64,000 nt of DNA from contig JBKJLI010000003.1 in NCBI GenBank assembly GCA_046597065.1, positions 290,841-354,840 on the forward strand. The letters are read 5' to 3'. Of the stretch, positions 1,917-63,303 are shown one piece after another. The position numbers and the translations under genes are program-made. This DNA comes from Candidatus Saccharimonadia bacterium. Its GTDB lineage: Bacteria > Patescibacteriota > Saccharimonadia > UBA4664 > SCTI01. The notes beneath the pieces were generated by a model. That model had not been told where the DNA came from. It saw nothing but the letters and a program-made list of their open reading frames with translations, and searched no databases. Position 1 is the stretch's first letter. Each line of letters opens with the position of its first letter.

Positions 1917-2824
1917 ATATAATTGCCCGTCGCCGTTGGTGGTATGCCATCTCGCTTTTGATTATTGTTCCCGGTACCATCGCCCTGTTTACGCATGGCC
2001 TAAAGCTTGGAATCGACTTTAAGGGTGGGCAACTGCTCGAAGTAGAGGGGCGGGTGGTTCAGGCTGATGTTAGCGGAGTGGCCGGTCAACTGAAAATTAA
2101 AGATTTATCGGTTACGCCAGCCGGAGGCAACACTTTGATCCGTTATCGCGATGAGGCCGAGCCAAAAACTCAGCAAAGCAACCGTCAACAGCTTAGTCAA
2201 ACCTTGGGCACATCTGGCCACAAAGAGGTTCGCTTTGAAACCGTGGGCCCATCTGTAAGTCAGGATATTACTCGAAATGCCTTAATTGCGGTCGGGCTGG
2301 CGGCCCTAGCCATTGTGCTCTACATAGCCTTTGCATTCCGAAATGTGCCACCACCAATGAAATCGTGGAATTTTGGCGTAGCCGCTATCATCGCTATGCT
2401 TCATGATGCGGTATTGTTACTGGGAGTTTTCTCGCTGCTCGGAATTTTCTTTAATGTTGAAGTCGACGCGCTGTTTGTAACCGCCATCCTTACTGTTATC
2501 GGTTTCTCTGTTCATGACACGATCGTTGTATTCGACCGTATCCGCGAAAATCTGCGACGCGAAAGAGGAGAGTTTAGCGATATTGTAAATAACAGTATCC
2601 TTGAAACCTTCGCCCGTTCGCTTAACACCTCGTTAACCGTATTATTAACACTTTTGGCGCTGTATTTGTTTGGTGGTGAGTCGATCAAGCTGTTCGTTTT
2701 AGCTTTGTTGATCGGTGTAGCATCGGGCACCTATTCATCAATCTTTAACGCCTCCCCAATTCTAGTTAGTTGGCACAATTGGAGGCTTAATCGCGAAGCC
2801 AAAGCAGCTGCCCGAAAAGCCTAA
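1913..2824 (+). CDS. secF: Protein translocase subunit SecF
   Basis: 303 aa multi-TM ORF directly coupled to secD (ATGA overlap). Confidence 0.9.
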   Translation: MNIIARRRWWYAISLLIIVPGTIALFTHGLKLGIDFKGGQLLEVEGRVVQADVSGVAGQLKIKDLSVTPAGGNTLIRYRDEAEPKTQQSNRQQLSQTLGTSGHKEVRFETVGPSVSQDITRNALIAVGLAALAIVLYIAFAFRNVPPPMKSWNFGVAAIIAMLHDAVLLLGVFSLLGIFFNVEVDALFVTAILTVIGFSVHDTIVVFDRIRENLRRERGEFSDIVNNSILETFARSLNTSLTVLLTLLALYLFGGESIKLFVLALLIGVASGTYSSIFNASPILVSWHNWRLNREAKAAARKA

Positions 2825-2886
2825 ACTAGGTCAAGCTCACTATTGCCGAACAAGTTTTGTATACTCGCAACTTAAGCGGTAGCGGT

Positions 2887-2915
2887 TTGCAATGAACCGG
2901 CGCTTTTAGTAATAT
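2887..2915 (+). promoter_or_regulatory. Sigma70-like promoter: TTGCAA, 17 nt spacer, TAATAT
   Basis: Read directly from sequence upstream of the 2970 ORF. An extended -10 element tTGtATACT also lies at about 2862-2872. Confidence 0.4.
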
Positions 2916-2969
2916 AAGTACAACACCAAGTGGGGTGCCAGTAACTCAAGTGAGGTTGTAGTTGTCACA

Positions 2970-3254
2970 ATGTTAGAGGTTTTTATTACATCTAAGACTC
3001 GCCGCAAGATCATCACGGTCTATACCAAGTATCCCGATCACAAGGCCCATGTGCGAGCTTTAGCCCAGATGATTCGTGAAGATCCCGGTAACGTACAGCG
3101 CGAACTTAAACGCCTGGCCGAAATCGGATTTGTAAAAGCCAGTAAGGAAGGCAACACCAACGTTTACTCGGCCAACCCCAAATTTTCGTTGTACAAAGAG
3201 CTGCAAAGCATGGTGCTAAAGTCACAAGCCTCCAAGCGCCGCCTGGTTCAATAA
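2970..3254 (+). CDS. Small winged helix-turn-helix DNA-binding protein (94 aa)
   Basis: The sequence VRALAQMIREDPGNVQRELKRLAEIGFVKASKEGNTNVYSANP fits a helix-turn-helix followed by a beta-hairpin wing. The gene has its own promoter and a hairpin terminator. Confidence 0.5.
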   Translation: MLEVFITSKTRRKIITVYTKYPDHKAHVRALAQMIREDPGNVQRELKRLAEIGFVKASKEGNTNVYSANPKFSLYKELQSMVLKSQASKRRLVQ

Positions 3255-3283
3255 GCCTAAAATTTGCCCTAATAAGATTGACG

Positions 3284-3309
3284 TACCCGGTATCAGCGGG
3301 TATTCTTTT
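3284..3309 (+). terminator. Intrinsic terminator-like hairpin: tacccg / cgggta stem followed by ttcttttg
   Basis: 6 bp stem, 7 nt loop and a T-rich tail immediately after the wHTH gene. Confidence 0.45.
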
Positions 3310-3355
3310 GGCCAAGCTCCGGGTGGAGGAGAGTACCTTTTAGAGAGGAATTTAG

Positions 3356-3721
3356 ATGCGCACGATTGGGCATTTCTCACGATTTGTGCTCGAGTCGCTC
3401 CGGCGGGGCTGGAATGGCCTGCGCCCCAAGACGATGAATCAAGTCATGATTGCCTTTAGGGGCATGAGAGACGAGATGACAGAGTCGGGCAGTTTGACCC
3501 CATACCTCGAGCGCTGGGGCCTGACCAGCTTTGAATATGAGGCCGCCTTATATTACGTACAAAGCGGGTATCGCCTGGATGCTGCTCTAGAGCTGGCAGA
3601 AGACGACGCTCTGCATGATCCTTATAACACCTGCCGAAAGGTCCAGGAAATCTTGCTGCGCTGGGGGGCGGTTTACAAATTGGAGCCGCAACATGGAAAC
3701 AATACAAAGGTGGTGATGTAA
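3356..3721 (+). CDS. Hypothetical protein (121 aa), paralogous to the next gene
   Basis: SD sequence gagagg lies 8 nt upstream. It shares the motif GLTxxE(F/Y)EAA(L/I)...LxRW(G/A) with the 3724 ORF. Confidence 0.5.
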   Translation: MRTIGHFSRFVLESLRRGWNGLRPKTMNQVMIAFRGMRDEMTESGSLTPYLERWGLTSFEYEAALYYVQSGYRLDAALELAEDDALHDPYNTCRKVQEILLRWGAVYKLEPQHGNNTKVVM

Positions 3722-3723
3722 TC

Positions 3724-4044
3724 ATGGGTATTGCAGCATTGCTTAGGGCGCCATTCGTATTGATCTCAGACCTGTTCGAGATCATTACGAGCGGTGAGGC
3801 CACGCTAGAGGACGCACTTGCCGAGGTCCGTCGAGTTAGATCGGATGGAAACGGTGATTTCTTTAAGTCCAGGGGGCTGACAATCACCGAGTTCGAGGCT
3901 GCAATTCGAGTGCTAGAGGCCGGCGGCCCAAGAAATGCACTCAGTCATTACGGTCGCGAGTCTCGGCTCAAAGATAAGCGCCGCTTTGATGCAACCGAGG
4001 CAGTCCTTTGTCGATGGGCGCTAGATCAACCATCTTGTCATTAA
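3724..4044 (+). CDS. Hypothetical protein (106 aa), paralog of the 3356 ORF
   Basis: Starts 3 nt after the upstream stop. Shares the GLTITEFEAAIRVLEAGG motif with its neighbour. Confidence 0.5.
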   Translation: MGIAALLRAPFVLISDLFEIITSGEATLEDALAEVRRVRSDGNGDFFKSRGLTITEFEAAIRVLEAGGPRNALSHYGRESRLKDKRRFDATEAVLCRWALDQPSCH

Positions 4045-4049
4045 TCAAC

Positions 4050-4076
4050 CCGGCGGGGGCCATAGCGCCCCCGCCG
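4050..4076 (+). terminator. GC-rich hairpin (cggcgggggc / gcccccgccg, 10 bp stem) closing the two-gene cassette
   Basis: Perfect 10 bp inverted repeat read from the sequence. No clear U-tract follows. Confidence 0.4.
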
Positions 4077-4154
4077 TGGTAGTAAATTTCACATCAAACT
4101 TAATAAACTAAAAGCAATAATATCTTAATAATTACTTGTTATACTTAGGGCACT

Positions 4155-5834
4155 ATGAAGGCCCAAGATACGGTTTTAGCAACTGGCGAGGCCGAGCATA
4201 AACTGCCCGGCGTGGTTAAGGCTGTGTTGCGTCAGCGCGGTATCATCGAACCCAACGAAATTGATGAATTTCTTTATCCCGATTATGAACGCGATATCGC
4301 CGACCCATATTTGATGACCGATATGGATAAAGCTATCAAACGTTTGCTCGTTGCAATCGACAAGTGTGAAAAGGTGGCGGTATACGGTGACTACGATATC
4401 GATGGTATTGCCTCTACCGCCCTGATGCTGGAAGTATTAAAGTTGCATGGGCTTGATCCGCTGGCGTATATCCCAGACCGTTACGATGAGGGATACGGCA
4501 TTAATCAGTCGGCCCTTGAATCCTTGCAAAAACAGGGTGTAACGCTAGTTATATCGGTCGATTGCGGTATCACCTCGGCCAATGAGGCTAAGTGGGCGGC
4601 TACGGCCGGCTTGGATCTTATTATCACTGATCATCATGATGTGCCAGATGAACTACCCGCTGCGGCTTTGGCGATAGTTAACCCCCGTCAAGATGGAGAC
4701 AGCTACCCGTTTAAAGATCTGGCTGGCGTTGGTGTAGCTTTTGCGGTGGTGCGAGCGCTGCAGCAGCGCACTAAAATACCCGAGGCCGGCCAAGAAAAAT
4801 GGCTTCTCGATTTAGTGGCGCTAGGCACCGTGTGCGATGTTATGCCACTAATTGGCGAAAACCGCATGCTTGTTCATTATGGGCTGATTGTACTAAGACG
4901 CACACGCCGCGTAGGTCTGGTTGCACTTAGCCAGAGTGCCGGTACCGAGCTAGCCAGTGTCAGCGCTTACCACTTGGGTTACGTGTTTGGTCCGCGGCTA
5001 AACGCCGCTGGGCGTCTAAAGCATGCCAGTCATAGTCTAGACCTTGTTACAACGACCGACCCTATAGCCGCTCAACAAATGGCTTTCGAGCTAGAAGAAA
5101 TGAACCATCAGCGCAGGTTAGAGCAAGATCGGATTACCAAGGAGGCCGAAGAACAGGCCGAAAATTACAGCGCCGACCCAGTATTGGTGCTTGCAGACTC
5201 CAGCTGGCCGCATGGTGTTGTAGGAATAGTCGCCTCAAAAATTGCCGAAAAGTATTTAAAGCCCACGTTGGTATTGCAGATATTGGATGATAAGGCCAAG
5301 GGATCCGGACGTAGTTCAGGGGGCTATAACTTAATTGATGGTTTGCGTAGTCAGGTGGGGTTGTTTGATAAACTGGGCGGCCATCACTTTGCGGCTGGCT
5401 TTACTTTAGATGTCGCTAAACTTGATGACCTGCGCCAAGGCTTAATTGGCCATTACCTAATTGCTGCCGATGACCTGCCAGCAAAGACGGTTCGCGAGGC
5501 TGATGTTGTAATTGATGATTCGGCCGACATTAACTGGGATACCTATGGCTTCTTAGAGCAGCTAGAACCTTTTGGTAATGGCAACCCTCAACCGGCCTTC
5601 GGTTTAAACAACGTTAAGCTGGTTGATATCGATACCGTAGGCAAGGACAAACAACATCTAAAGCTGCGACTGTCTAGTGAGACTGGGACTATTTTTGAGG
5701 CGATAGGCTTTGGAATGATGGAGCGCTACCCAAACTTAAAAGCCGGCCAGACTGCTAACGTGCAGTTTTACCTACAAAAAAATACGTTTAATGATCGCTC
5801 AACATTGCAGTTGGTATTGGTTTCGGTGCAATAA
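4155..5834 (+). CDS. recJ: Single-stranded-DNA-specific exonuclease RecJ
   Basis: 559 aa with DHH/DHHA1 motifs (YGDYDIDGIAS, DHHDVPDE). Confidence 0.9.
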   Translation: MKAQDTVLATGEAEHKLPGVVKAVLRQRGIIEPNEIDEFLYPDYERDIADPYLMTDMDKAIKRLLVAIDKCEKVAVYGDYDIDGIASTALMLEVLKLHGLDPLAYIPDRYDEGYGINQSALESLQKQGVTLVISVDCGITSANEAKWAATAGLDLIITDHHDVPDELPAAALAIVNPRQDGDSYPFKDLAGVGVAFAVVRALQQRTKIPEAGQEKWLLDLVALGTVCDVMPLIGENRMLVHYGLIVLRRTRRVGLVALSQSAGTELASVSAYHLGYVFGPRLNAAGRLKHASHSLDLVTTTDPIAAQQMAFELEEMNHQRRLEQDRITKEAEEQAENYSADPVLVLADSSWPHGVVGIVASKIAEKYLKPTLVLQILDDKAKGSGRSSGGYNLIDGLRSQVGLFDKLGGHHFAAGFTLDVAKLDDLRQGLIGHYLIAADDLPAKTVREADVVIDDSADINWDTYGFLEQLEPFGNGNPQPAFGLNNVKLVDIDTVGKDKQHLKLRLSSETGTIFEAIGFGMMERYPNLKAGQTANVQFYLQKNTFNDRSTLQLVLVSVQ

Positions 5835-5979
5835 TTTGCATTAAGGCAGTGCATCAAAATATCTGAGCACTTAATTTATTCAAAAACCGACAATTGAGAG
5901 CCTTGTCAGCGGGCCATAAACATGGTAATCTTAAGGTCAGTTTTGTGATGGTCTAATCGACGGAAAGCAAGAGGAAGTA

Positions 5980-7275
5980 GTGGCCAAACGGTTTCAGCAT
6001 GTTCGGGGAATGCCCGATATACTACCAGCAGAGGAACAGGGTTATAGATACGCAATAGATAGCTTTTCATCGCTAGCCGATGCGGCTGGCTATGAGCGCT
6101 TACAGATTCCCGTACTAGAAGATAAGGGTGTGTTCGAACGCGGAGTTGGTGACGATACCGATGTGGTGTCTAAAGAGATGTACGTATTAACCGACCGATC
6201 GGGAAATGAGTTGGCTCTACGCCCTGAGCCCACTGCCGGTATTGTGCGGGCTTATTTAGAGCATGGTATGTCTAGTTTGCCTCAGCCGGTGCGTGTGCAG
6301 GTGGCCGGTGCCATGTTTCGCTATGATCGCCCGCAGGCCGGACGCCAGCGTCAGTTTACGCAGGTCGGCGTAGAGGTTATTGGTGAGGGTGCCTCGAGCG
6401 TTGATGCTCAGTTGGTTACCTTGGCCCTACGTTACTATCGTATGCTGGGTTTGCGTAATATTACTCTCCAAATCAACAGCCTTGGTGATACAGCCGATCG
6501 CGCTGCTTACCTTAAGGCCTTGGTGGCATATCTTAAAGAGCACAAATCTAAGTTAGCCGATGTTGATCAGAAGCGGCTTTCTGGTAATCCGTTGAGAGTG
6601 CTTGATTCCAAAGAAAAAGCTAGTCAAAAGATTATTCAAGGGGCACCTCAGATTCTTAATTATCTTTCAGAAACCAGTAAGGCCCACTTTACCGGTGTGT
6701 TGGAATATCTAGACGCTCTGGGAATCGCCTACGAATTGAATCCTCAGCTAGTGCGAGGCTTAGATTATTACACCCACACCGTATTCGAGTTTTATGGCGG
6801 CCGCGATGGCTCACAAAGCAGTCTTGGTGGTGGCGGTCGCTATAATCATCTGGTAGAGCAGCTAGGTGGCCAGCCAACTCCGGCTGCCGGTTTTGGCATT
6901 GGTATAGAGCGTGTACTACTGGAAATGCGCGAAGAGGGTATCGACATTCCGCACTCTAAACCGGTCAGCGTTTACGTTGCCAGTTTGGGTGAGCCAGCTC
7001 GCGTTAGCGCCTTTGCTTTGATCGAAAAGCTGCTGGATGCCGGAGTTGGAACAGTTGGTGCTGTCGACAAAGATGGGATTGGTCCACAACTTGAACGTGC
7101 CAACAAGCTGGGAATGCCATTTGCGGTTATCATCGGCCAAAAAGAGGTACAAGAAGAGACGGTTATTTTGCGCGATATGAAATCGGGTGCTCAGGAGATG
7201 ATGCCGCTTGCCACCATTGTTAAGGAACTGCAGACACGATTTAAACCGGTCAAGCCAGTTAAAGTGGCTAAGTAA
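5980..7275 (+). CDS. hisS: Histidyl-tRNA synthetase
   Basis: 431 aa class II aaRS with HisRS motifs (RYDRPQAGRQRQF, GGGRY). GTG start with the SD sequence agaggaag. Confidence 0.9.
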   Translation: MAKRFQHVRGMPDILPAEEQGYRYAIDSFSSLADAAGYERLQIPVLEDKGVFERGVGDDTDVVSKEMYVLTDRSGNELALRPEPTAGIVRAYLEHGMSSLPQPVRVQVAGAMFRYDRPQAGRQRQFTQVGVEVIGEGASSVDAQLVTLALRYYRMLGLRNITLQINSLGDTADRAAYLKALVAYLKEHKSKLADVDQKRLSGNPLRVLDSKEKASQKIIQGAPQILNYLSETSKAHFTGVLEYLDALGIAYELNPQLVRGLDYYTHTVFEFYGGRDGSQSSLGGGGRYNHLVEQLGGQPTPAAGFGIGIERVLLEMREEGIDIPHSKPVSVYVASLGEPARVSAFALIEKLLDAGVGTVGAVDKDGIGPQLERANKLGMPFAVIIGQKEVQEETVILRDMKSGAQEMMPLATIVKELQTRFKPVKPVKVAK

Positions 7276-8528: not shown

Positions 8529-8780
8529 ATGTGCAGCATCGCCATCCAGAGCATGATCGATGAATTCATCGCCAAGCATGAGCTCAAGTACCAAAAGATC
8601 GTCGGCAGTAAGGGGGGTTTCGATCATGCCATGTCGTTGCTCGCTCGATCGGGCATCAGCGGCACAGATCGGCGTCTGATGAAGAAGGAGCTGCACCAGG
8701 TGCTCGTGTCGAATCTCGAGAGCCAGGCCCGCAAGCGTCGTAGGGATGCAAGCCAACCCTCCGTTGCCGTACCGGCCTGA
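8529..8780 (+). CDS. Hypothetical small protein (83 aa) with high G+C and strong GC3 bias
   Basis: Promoter upstream and an AGGAG SD. Third codon positions are strongly G/C, unlike flanking genes. Confidence 0.4.
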   Translation: MCSIAIQSMIDEFIAKHELKYQKIVGSKGGFDHAMSLLARSGISGTDRRLMKKELHQVLVSNLESQARKRRRDASQPSVAVPA

Positions 8781-14066: not shown

Positions 14067-14569
14067 TAAATTCTCAAACACCCAAATATTTGTAGCGCAT
14101 TGCTTCATTATGAAACATTTCTATATTTTCATATACTAATATTTAAGTACTTATTACACTCATAAAGCTGTGTAGAAGCTATTAGTTGGTTGTAGTTATA
14201 ACAACTGTATATAAAGCTATTTCAAAATATATTATCGAATCAGTACGACCAAACTCATCTGGATAAGCGCTTATGCTAGGCATAATCAAGATATTACTAA
14301 TCTAACTTGTCCCCAGTAATTTGCCGCCCAATTTAAACCTGTTAACAAGCTATACCTATCAGTGCTGACATCGGGCACTTTTATTACCAGTATGACTGTA
14401 TAAATAATGTGAACAATAATTATACTCAAATAATCTTGAACAATTAATTTGCATTGCGTGAACACATTAACTAAACTCTGTTTATACCGCTTATTTAAGA
14501 AAAACTTAATCTGTCGTCCATCTGGATGAATGGCTAAAAGCGGTCATGTGGTAAGGAGAATTTATAGTT

Positions 14570-61862: not shown

Positions 61863-63041
61863 ATGGAACCAATCCCCGAAATCGCAATTGGTGTTAAGGC
61901 CTTTTTAAACATCCTCAATGAAACAATGGGGTTTGCTTTCCCGTCGGTGACGATCGAAGGCGAGGTATCGAGCTACAAAGTTAATCAAGGCAAGTGGGTA
62001 TTTTTTGATCTAAAAGATGAAGACGCAACTCTACCATGCTTCATGCCGATTTTTCATCTAAAAGTGCCTTTAGAAGATGGTATGAAAGTTAAGGTTACCG
62101 GTGTCCCCAAAGTTACCAACTGGGGCAAGTTTAGTCTAACTGTTAAAACTGTACAGCTAGCCGGGGAGGGTGAGCTGCGACGAGCTTTTGAGTTGCTTAA
62201 AGCCAAGCTTGAGGCCGAAGGACTGTTTGCCGAAGAGCGTAAACGCCAACTGCCACGCTTTCCGCGCACGATTGGGCTGATAACTTCTGGCGCCTCTGAC
62301 GCCTATGCCGATTTCATTAAAATTCTTGCTACCCGCTGGGGAGGTTTGACGGTACGGCTCGCCGACATCCAGGTACAAGGTGCACCTGCGCCGGGGCAAG
62401 TAGTAAATGCCATCAACTACTTTAACCAACTAGCAACGCCACCGGATGTGCTAGTGATTACGAGAGGTGGGGGAAGCCTAGAAGATCTACAAGCATTTAG
62501 TACCGAGGATGTGGCCCGGGCGGTGGCATCGAGCCGAACCCCCACGATAGTGGGGGTTGGCCACGAACGCGACATCAGTTTGGCCGACTTAGCTGCCGAT
62601 CGACGTGCCGCCACCCCAACCGATGCCGCCCGCTTAGTAGTCCCAGAGCGCCTCGAGGTACTGCAGCAAGTTGACGTCCTAGCTCGTCGTAGTGAGCAGT
62701 TGCTACGTGGCCGGCTGCAGTCCGCCGATATCCGTATTGATCGCCAAGTGGCATTGCTGGAACGCTTTGTACGCCTGCCCGCCACTCAGCTACAACAGTT
62801 AAACGCGCGACTGCTAACTGCCCAAAAACGCAGCGCTGAACGGGCAGGTGAGCGGCTGCGTTCCCTTGAGCGCTTACTGGCCAGCTTTAACCCGCAGGCC
62901 ACCTTAAAGCGCGGCTATGCTATCGTGCGAAGTGGTGATCGGGTGGTGACAAGGCCCGAACAGGTTTCGAGCGGAGACGGCCTCGTGATACAATTGGCGG
63001 CAGGAAAACTAAGCGCAAAGGTGGAAAATGGCAGAGATTAA
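61863..63041 (+). CDS. xseA: Exodeoxyribonuclease VII large subunit
   Basis: OB-fold N-terminus and catalytic core. The -10 element TATACT lies 7 nt before the ATG, so the mRNA is likely leaderless. Confidence 0.85.
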   Translation: MEPIPEIAIGVKAFLNILNETMGFAFPSVTIEGEVSSYKVNQGKWVFFDLKDEDATLPCFMPIFHLKVPLEDGMKVKVTGVPKVTNWGKFSLTVKTVQLAGEGELRRAFELLKAKLEAEGLFAEERKRQLPRFPRTIGLITSGASDAYADFIKILATRWGGLTVRLADIQVQGAPAPGQVVNAINYFNQLATPPDVLVITRGGGSLEDLQAFSTEDVARAVASSRTPTIVGVGHERDISLADLAADRRAATPTDAARLVVPERLEVLQQVDVLARRSEQLLRGRLQSADIRIDRQVALLERFVRLPATQLQQLNARLLTAQKRSAERAGERLRSLERLLASFNPQATLKRGYAIVRSGDRVVTRPEQVSSGDGLVIQLAAGKLSAKVENGRD

Positions 63042-63303
63042 TGATTTTGGAGCGAAGTTAGCCGAGCTCGAGGCCATCACCGAATGGTTTGAATCAGAAG
63101 ATGTCGATTTAAATCAGGCTCTAACTAAGTTCGAGCGGGGAATGAAGCTAGCCGGTGAGCTAAAGGGGGAATTAGGTCAACTTGAAAACCGAGTAGAAAA
63201 GATCAAACAAAAGTTTGACGCTCCTTCGGCCGCCAACGCACCAACTCTGGCAGAACCCAATCCAACTGACGCCGACCCCGAAGATGGTCCAACCCTGTTT
63301 TGA
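63028..63303 (+). CDS. xseB: Exodeoxyribonuclease VII small subunit
   Basis: FEEAL-like helical hairpin. Overlaps xseA. Confidence 0.85.
   Translation: MAEINDFGAKLAELEAITEWFESEDVDLNQALTKFERGMKLAGELKGELGQLENRVEKIKQKFDAPSAANAPTLAEPNPTDADPEDGPTLF

Follow-up and report, generated by a model that had tools for sequence, protein, structure and literature searches.

We analyzed a 64-kb stretch of DNA (positions 1-64000, hereafter the window), in which a gene encoding a winged helix-turn-helix (wHTH) protein is followed by two small genes, here called orfA and orfB. The listing of open reading frames (ORFs), read over positions 2400-4600, places them in a series encoded entirely on the + strand: secD (588-1916), secF (1913-2824), the wHTH gene (2970-3254), orfA (3356-3721), orfB (3724-4044), recJ (4155-5834), and hisS (5980-7275). 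The conserved neighbors are readily recognized, on the left secF (Pfam SecD_SecF_C, E = 8e-59), which is syntenic in relatives, and on the right recJ (Pfam DHH, DHHA1, and RecJ_OB). The three genes between secF and recJ-hisS encode proteins of 94, 121, and 106 aa, the coordinates and strand given in an initial annotation of this DNA being borne out. That annotation had also set the gene order beside that of many Gram-positive genomes, and it had read the 1.3 kb between secF and recJ as a single accessory cassette with a regulator and two paralogs for immunity, antitoxin, or anti-defense functions. The source is a Saccharimonadia bacterium (Patescibacteria, or candidate phyla radiation [CPR]) rather than a classical Gram-positive, since the loci found in a genome collection with RecJ as the seed belong to Saccharimonadia/Patescibacteria metagenome-assembled genomes (MAGs), with RecJ identities of 50-54%.

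A core wHTH gene between secF and recJ

Profile searches confirm that the 94-aa gene encodes a wHTH protein, as initially annotated. It matches the ArsR-like family NF033788 (E = 1.5e-6, 27.9 bits vs. a curated cut-off of 55) and Pfam HVO_A0114 (E = 6e-6, also below the curated cut-off), as well as PADLOC PDC-M05A (E = 2e-19), the last over its N-terminal wHTH only (profile positions 10-96 of 201). No solved structure in the PDB matches it by sequence. In size and wHTH signature (NF033788 and HVO_A0114), the protein resembles ArsR/SmtB regulators. Unlike these, it stays below the curated cut-offs and has no cysteine in its 94-aa sequence; metal sites built from histidine or carboxylate residues are conceivable. 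The likeness to PDC-M05 is confined to the N-terminal wHTH. PDC-M05, a candidate defense or toxin-antitoxin system, is defined by a nucleotidyltransferase (NTase) of the MNT type together with a HEPN protein (PMC12988326), whereas no NTase domain was found in the 94-aa protein with Pfam, and neither orfA nor orfB has any PADLOC or Pfam match. We therefore rejected the locus as a PDC-M05 system, both the NTase domain and the HEPN partner being absent.

The gene is a constant feature of related genomes. A wHTH ortholog of 94-97 aa, 72-75% identical, lies between secF and recJ in five of five RecJ-seeded Saccharimonadia relatives. When metagenomes were scanned with the wHTH protein as the seed, 45 loci were obtained; as far as their contigs extend, secF precedes the gene and recJ follows it (loci and lineages of relatives carry L numbers below). 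The wHTH protein is more conserved than RecJ, with 72-91% identity in relatives where RecJ shows 50-66%, and its dN/dS is ~0-0.02 in three pairwise comparisons. It is kept even where nothing separates it from recJ, as in L018/L019 and L053-L056. The wHTH gene thus belongs to the core of this Saccharimonadia lineage, in which it has a fixed place between secF and recJ, and it is not part of an accessory insert. Since it keeps this position in all sampled relatives, including those with nothing in the orfA/orfB position, it is not a dedicated regulator of orfA/orfB. The initial annotation had itself held that conservation at this position in relatives would speak against its cassette, and such conservation is what was found for the wHTH gene.

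The regulatory sequences in front of the gene are conserved as well. The promoter-like TTGCAA-N17-TAATAT of the initial annotation is present at 2888-2916 on the + strand. Though it scores only 8/12 against the consensus, below the call of the promoter scan, it probably does serve the conserved wHTH gene as a promoter, because both hexamers (TTGCAw and TAnnAT) are conserved in an alignment of 10 lineages. A palindrome-like sequence, GTTGTAG-N5-CACAA, abuts the start codon (2955-2970, +; with the ATG, CACAATG) and is conserved in the window, L012, L017, L018, L020, L064, and L065; it is possibly an operator or a translation-initiation element. The only other place in the 64 kb that fits the pattern of this element, GTTGTAGTTGTCACAA, exactly is GTTGTAGTTATAACAA at 14189-14204, within the 500-bp ftsA-ftsZ intergenic region. 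Matches with at most one mismatch number five in the window vs. 3.7 expected by chance, which is no enrichment. The start-codon element and its ftsA-ftsZ twin may be a candidate operator for the wHTH protein.

The variable slot between the wHTH gene and recJ

Comparison of the secF-recJ junction across relatives, which the initial annotation had proposed, divides it into a wHTH gene conserved in all of them and a variable wHTH-recJ interval, hereafter the slot. The distance from the wHTH gene to recJ ranges from -37 bp, where the two genes overlap, to 1747 bp. The slot holds small membrane proteins in L002, L003, L006, L033, and L041, a minus-strand gene family in L005, L032, and L033, and genes for a phosphoribosyltransferase (PRTase) and OMP decarboxylase in L059, while it is empty in, among others, the lineages named above. 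The minus-strand family belongs to a more distant clade (L005 580-972, L032 1960-2580, and L033 4946-5560; 31-35% identity, E ~1e-5) and has no Pfam assignment, with one marginal HA2_N match (E = 0.003) below the cut-off. The L024 slot contains other tandem paralogous small ORFs on the minus strand (813-1336), of 80 and 93 aa, which match each other by tblastn with an E of 1e-10.

The boundaries are conserved regardless of content: TTGAy-N17-TATTnT follows the wHTH stop and G-TATACT-A precedes recJ, and both are retained in the empty slots of L018 and L019. In the window, the left element is TTGACG-N17-TATTCT directly after the wHTH stop (3278-3306, +), the sole site scoring at least 9/12 within 2700-4300; its TTGAy and TATTnT are conserved in seven to eight lineages with differing downstream content. 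The right element, just upstream of recJ (4138-4147, +), is invariant in an alignment of the window, L017, L065, L018, L019, and L022, slot full or empty alike. The terminator-like hairpin that had been placed after the wHTH gene falls within the left element (3283-3303, with a T-run) and barely stands out from shuffled sequences (-10.5 kcal/mol, z = -1.0, equaled by 35 of 200 shuffles). It varies across lineages while the overlapping hexamers are kept; a stem plus T-run after the wHTH gene is present also in the nearest relatives of the window. Because the hexamers are conserved across lineages and the hairpin is weak and not conserved, the 3278-3306 element is probably mainly a promoter for slot cargo, with a dual role of the stem and T-run possible.

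The slot also shows traces of exchange. L017 and its 95%-identical relative L062 both carry a gene pair in the slot; their dS is 0.25-0.33 from secD through the first gene of the pair, and 0.04-0.07 in the second gene and recJ. When L022 is compared with L063, a dS of 0.46 is confined to the wHTH gene (L022 4001-4273 vs. L063 1065-1346), the flanks having 0-0.05. Since dS is mosaic in both comparisons, it suggests homologous recombination or gene conversion via the conserved flanks, with breakpoints at the slot. The contigs of L012 and L013 end 5 bp after the wHTH stop. In all, the window's closest relative has three independent assemblies that stop at the wHTH gene or shortly behind it, which fits strain-level heterogeneity in the slot.

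These findings separate the wHTH gene from what follows it. The three genes are not present or absent together: all relatives have the wHTH gene, some have a pair, and empty sites retain the wHTH gene. The idea of a cassette inserted as a unit was therefore abandoned, the wHTH gene being core, the pair patchy, and a separate promoter-like element lying between them. Likewise, the proposed variable hotspot applies to the wHTH-recJ interval, a 0.8-kb segment with orphan paralogs in the window, and not to the whole 1.3 kb as a single insert. At the window segment, no flanking direct repeats, composition shift, or similarity to phage DNA was found, the GC content of the slot segment being 0.52-0.54 vs. 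~0.50 in the flanks. With its conserved flanks and boundary elements, contents that differ between lineages, empty sites, and mosaic dS, the slot resembles hypervariable intergenic slots known as genomic islets. It differs from them in its very small size (0-1.75 kb), in lacking an integrase, tRNA, and direct repeats, and in that one occupant family persists clade-wide.

Variation extends beyond the slot. The distance from secF to the wHTH gene ranges from 41 to 1561 bp, this interval containing lineage-specific ORFs of 150-320 aa (L022 3268-3810, minus strand; L046 2851-3813; L033 2508-3616). Downstream, a RelA/SpoT gene for ~730 aa lies between recJ and hisS in most relatives (e.g., L062 7556-9757 and L065 7179-9371), whereas in the window (recJ-hisS junction, 5835-5979) and in L022 hisS follows recJ directly. 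The 64-kb window contains no RelA homolog anywhere, and neither tRNA genes nor Rfam families at the gathering threshold were found in its whole length. The secDF-recJ-relA-hisS neighborhood is similar to the Bacillus arrangement, so the synteny premise of the initial annotation is true in spirit.

The orfA-orfB pair and its counterparts in related lineages

The two slot genes of the window are related to each other. The orfA product carries the motif GLTSFEYEAAL...LRWG and that of orfB GLTITEFEAAI...CRWA, which have GLTxxE(F/Y)EAA(L/I) and (L/C)RW(G/A) in common. The proteins match by BLASTP (E = 7e-4, 25% identity over 55 aa) and by Smith-Waterman alignment (z = 5.6, 1 of 3000 shuffles as good). 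By these scores, the paralogy that the initial annotation had seen in the shared motif is weak but real. orfA is preceded by an AGGA Shine-Dalgarno sequence, while orfB starts 2 nt past the orfA stop behind a AAGGTGGTGA Shine-Dalgarno sequence. In both cases, the annotated frame outscores the other five in codon use, although the values are low (0.105 for orfA and 0.022 for orfB, vs. ~0.3 for core genes). The pair is closed by a strong GC hairpin (4048-4080, +) whose perfect 10-bp core (4051-4060/4067-4076), already noted in the initial annotation, encloses a 6-nt loop; its fold energy of -29.3 kcal/mol is far from that of shuffled sequences (z = -5.7), and there is no U-tract with it.

Structural predictions are consistent with small soluble helical proteins. 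AlphaFold2 (AF2) models the orfA product as soluble with six helices (predicted local distance difference test [pLDDT] score of 66.6) and the orfB product with six helices in the same order (pLDDT of 60.6). These proteins and the related slot proteins of relatives are hydrophilic, mostly with a near-neutral pI (6.1-9.8), and some are Trp-rich (up to seven Trp in 124 aa); no signal peptide or transmembrane (TM) segment was seen in their sequences. Tandem paralogous small helical proteins are known from WXG100 (EsxA/EsxB) pairs and from arrays of small helical immunity proteins, which orfA and orfB resemble as adjacent paralogs of ~100-130 aa that are all-α, coupled, and fast-evolving. However, they differ in lacking a Pfam match, in having six short predicted helices instead of a two-helix hairpin, in having no secretion system or toxin gene nearby, and in lacking a signal peptide or TM segment.

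As the initial annotation had suspected, the paralogs lie outside any described family: neither has a match in Pfam, NCBIfam, PHROGs, PADLOC, the PDB, or viral-fold entries. Word-indexed searches of 5.8 billion protein clusters with orfA and orfB returned self matches only, and a profile of the five-sequence family recovered nothing from protein clusters beyond the sequences that it was built from and close to identical variants. An exhaustive hidden Markov model (HMM) search of 1.84 billion representatives added P0010 and P0012, true family members at the same locus. Three further candidates from that search, P0009, P0011, and P0013, were rejected as repeat artifacts whose scores sum over five to seven near-identical repeats, P0009 also matching 16 unrelated Pfam families by the same effect. 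Other leads were discarded as chance matches, namely the best sequence match in the PDB, the Med26 TFIIS-N-terminal "LW" domain (E = 0.5), and two supposed further paralogs in the window, XseB (63028-63303) and an 83-aa ORF (8529-8780). A likening of LTxxExEAA...G to the first HTH helix of LuxR/GerE or of sigma region 4 found no profile support. Nor do the searches point to a phage origin, the best PHROGs match having an E of 0.15 and the best Foldseek match in BFVD an E of 1.3, with no blastn match to phage genomes. Toxin or defense domains were likewise absent from the PHROGs, PADLOC, and viral-fold searches with orfA/orfB.

Inspection of the slots of relatives revealed similar pairs. L017 has the wHTH gene, genes for 123 and 131 aa, a GC hairpin, and recJ; L062 bears the same kind of pair; and in L064 and L065-L067, the contigs of P0010 and P0012, the order is secD, secF, wHTH, a gene for 123/124 aa, a gene for 132/134 aa, and recJ. 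A single related gene occupies the slot in L020, L021, L022, and L063. Thus, at least three related lineages show the same layout (wHTH, two coupled genes for 123-134 aa, strong hairpin, and recJ), recJ being seen downstream of the L017, L062, L064, and L065 pairs where the contig reaches, which argues against a private recent insertion. Spacings within pairs are 2, 10, 11, 5, and -7 nt, a Shine-Dalgarno sequence being present in every case, and these short distances suggest that the two genes of a pair are translationally coupled. Strong hairpins, differing in sequence, follow the pairs in L017, L062, L064, and L065 (z = -4.0 to -5.0).

The pairs in relatives are real coding genes under purifying selection, with omega values of 0.15-0.47. 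Between L017 and L062, 25 of the 40 differences in the combined pair are synonymous (P = 1e-7), and omega is 0.15 for gene 1 and 0.23 for gene 2, vs. 0.00-0.01 for secD, secF, and the wHTH gene. Between L064 and L065, omega is 0.15 (P = 4e-10) for the position-1 gene (p1) and 0.47 (P = 3e-3) for the position-2 gene (p2), vs. 0.02 for secF and 0.00 for the wHTH gene. Over a larger distance, L017 and L065 are 87% identical in SecF, 96% in the wHTH protein, and 80% in RecJ, but only 21% in p1 and 38% in p2. These pairs evolve 10-40 times faster than the neighboring secF and wHTH genes.

Position, motifs, and weak profile scores together make it likely that the window pair is homologous to those of L017, L062, L064, and L065. 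Like them, it sits between the wHTH gene and recJ, consists of two coupled genes on the + strand, and is closed by a GC hairpin, and in the phylogeny all pair-bearing lineages fall within one clade that includes the window. When the window pair was aligned with a position-2 profile using hhalign, a P of 0.002 was obtained over 73 colinear columns. Among 654 six-frame segments of the window, the position-2 HMM ranks orfB second and orfA third (3 of 2000 and 10 of 2000 shuffles as good). In pairwise Smith-Waterman tests, 3 of 3000 shuffles equal the orfB match to the second gene of L064 and 7 of 3000 the orfA match to the second gene of L017, the overall range being 3-14 of 3000. Three motif blocks align in 11 of 11 members, L100 and W103 being invariant and R36, T57, E60, and A63 nearly so.

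Several observations weigh against this homology, and against orfA and orfB as genes of the same kind. The codon scores lie at the lower end of the range for this genome's genes. AF2 confidence is low to moderate, and both models derive from a shared five-sequence alignment, so that the common helix order is not independent evidence. BLASTP finds no match between orfA and the second gene of L017, and a mixed profile of all members outside the window leaves orfA and orfB outside the top eight window segments. In the collections, the window pair itself is represented by self matches and one identical contig, from SRR31159421, so the evidence for selection comes from the pairs of relatives. Finally, the nearest relative, L012-L016, with ~90% aa identity in SecD, SecF, and the wHTH protein, carries something else after the wHTH gene; for this reason, the history of the slot may be one of replacement instead of simple vertical descent. 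The distribution fits a slot family that would have been present in the ancestor of the clade, would since have disappeared from L018/L019, and would have given way to other content in L014, the nearest relative of the window.

The explanation that survives best beside homology is that orfA and orfB have no kinship with the pairs of relatives, being either an independent acquisition of orphan genes or young or spurious ORFs in the same slot. The absence of all but self matches among the 5.8 billion clusters, the low codon scores, the failure of the profile made without the window, and the marginal cross-lineage pairwise scores would all agree with it, as would the demonstrable uptake of unrelated genes by the slot. 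Against it, the two ORFs combine Shine-Dalgarno sequences, the best frame score of six, 2-nt coupling, and mutual paralogy, both are among the top three of 654 segments with the position-2 profile, and the pair agrees with those of the same clade in gene number, sizes, motif order, closing hairpin, and position. We consider this explanation unlikely, though it deserves to be taken seriously.

A core regulator beside a slot with orphan genes

Taken together, these results incline us, with reservations, to the view that the locus consists of two independent things, a core wHTH regulator gene and an adjacent variable slot that holds a fast-evolving orphan pair. The slot would be recombination-prone and bounded by the promoter-like element at 3278-3306 and the recJ-proximal element at 4138-4147. 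orfA and orfB would belong to a clade-restricted family of soluble all-α proteins of about 110-120 aa that evolve fast under purifying selection. The two genes would be transcribed from the conserved promoter behind the wHTH gene up to the GC hairpin, their products would be made in equal amounts, and these might act jointly as a nonenzymatic heteromeric binding module. That the family diversifies rapidly and is kept in some lineages only would speak for an accessory role, possibly of a conflict or interaction type rather than housekeeping.

A more specific version of this reading, which we hold to be rather doubtful, is that the family consists of undescribed heterodimeric Trp-rich helical proteins of one Saccharimonadia clade, diversified by an arms race and expressed from the conserved promoter, which would offer exchangeable cargo a fixed site of expression next to a core regulator. 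If true, the pair might, for example, provide immunity against a toxin or interfere with host-bacterium or phage defenses.

Could the pair instead serve its neighbors, as a lineage-specific accessory factor such as a modulator of RecJ and recombination or a cofactor or anti-repressor of the wHTH protein? Its constant place between the wHTH gene and recJ wherever the family occurs would suit such a role, and so would the strand, and possibly the transcript, that it has in common with recJ. However, many relatives have the wHTH gene and recJ without a pair, a strong hairpin stands between the pair and recJ, and a rate 10-40 times that of secF and the wHTH gene would be unusual for a partner of conserved proteins. 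This makes a neighbor-assisting function improbable.

Slightly less probable again is the single accessory cassette of the initial annotation, in which the wHTH protein would regulate two immunity, antitoxin, or anti-defense paralogs inserted together between secDF and recJ. Its attraction is plain, as the three genes follow each other on the same strand, the pair belongs to no known family and is fast-evolving and patchily distributed, and the wHTH protein resembles the N-terminal domain of a candidate defense protein, PDC-M05A (E = 2e-19). It founders on the wHTH gene, which no sampled relative lacks, not even those whose slot is empty or holds other cargo, which is far more conserved than the pair, and which is separated from it by a further conserved promoter-like element; nor was an NTase domain, a HEPN partner, or any toxin, defense, or phage match found. 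The functional part of the claim fares less badly: no toxin, defense, or phage match speaks for immunity, antitoxin, or anti-defense roles, but a role in conflict would agree with the fast evolution and the patchy distribution. A type II toxin-antitoxin module, suggested by two small, tightly coupled or overlapping genes that are patchy and fast-evolving in a variable region, is very improbable, since orfA and orfB are mutual paralogs, unlike the build of toxin-antitoxin systems, and no toxin or antitoxin domain (Pfam, NCBIfam, or PADLOC) or DNA-binding antitoxin domain was detected.

The outcome is mostly a correction: in place of a cassette combining a regulator with immunity genes, the locus has a core regulator gene and, next to it, a small slot prone to recombination. 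The 94-aa wHTH protein, whose gene is fixed within the secDF-recJ-(relA)-hisS block, is a candidate for a key regulatory role in these organisms, whose transcription factors are very few. As for the slot, fast-evolving clade-specific orphan pairs of this kind may, speculatively here, mediate episymbiont-host or phage interactions.

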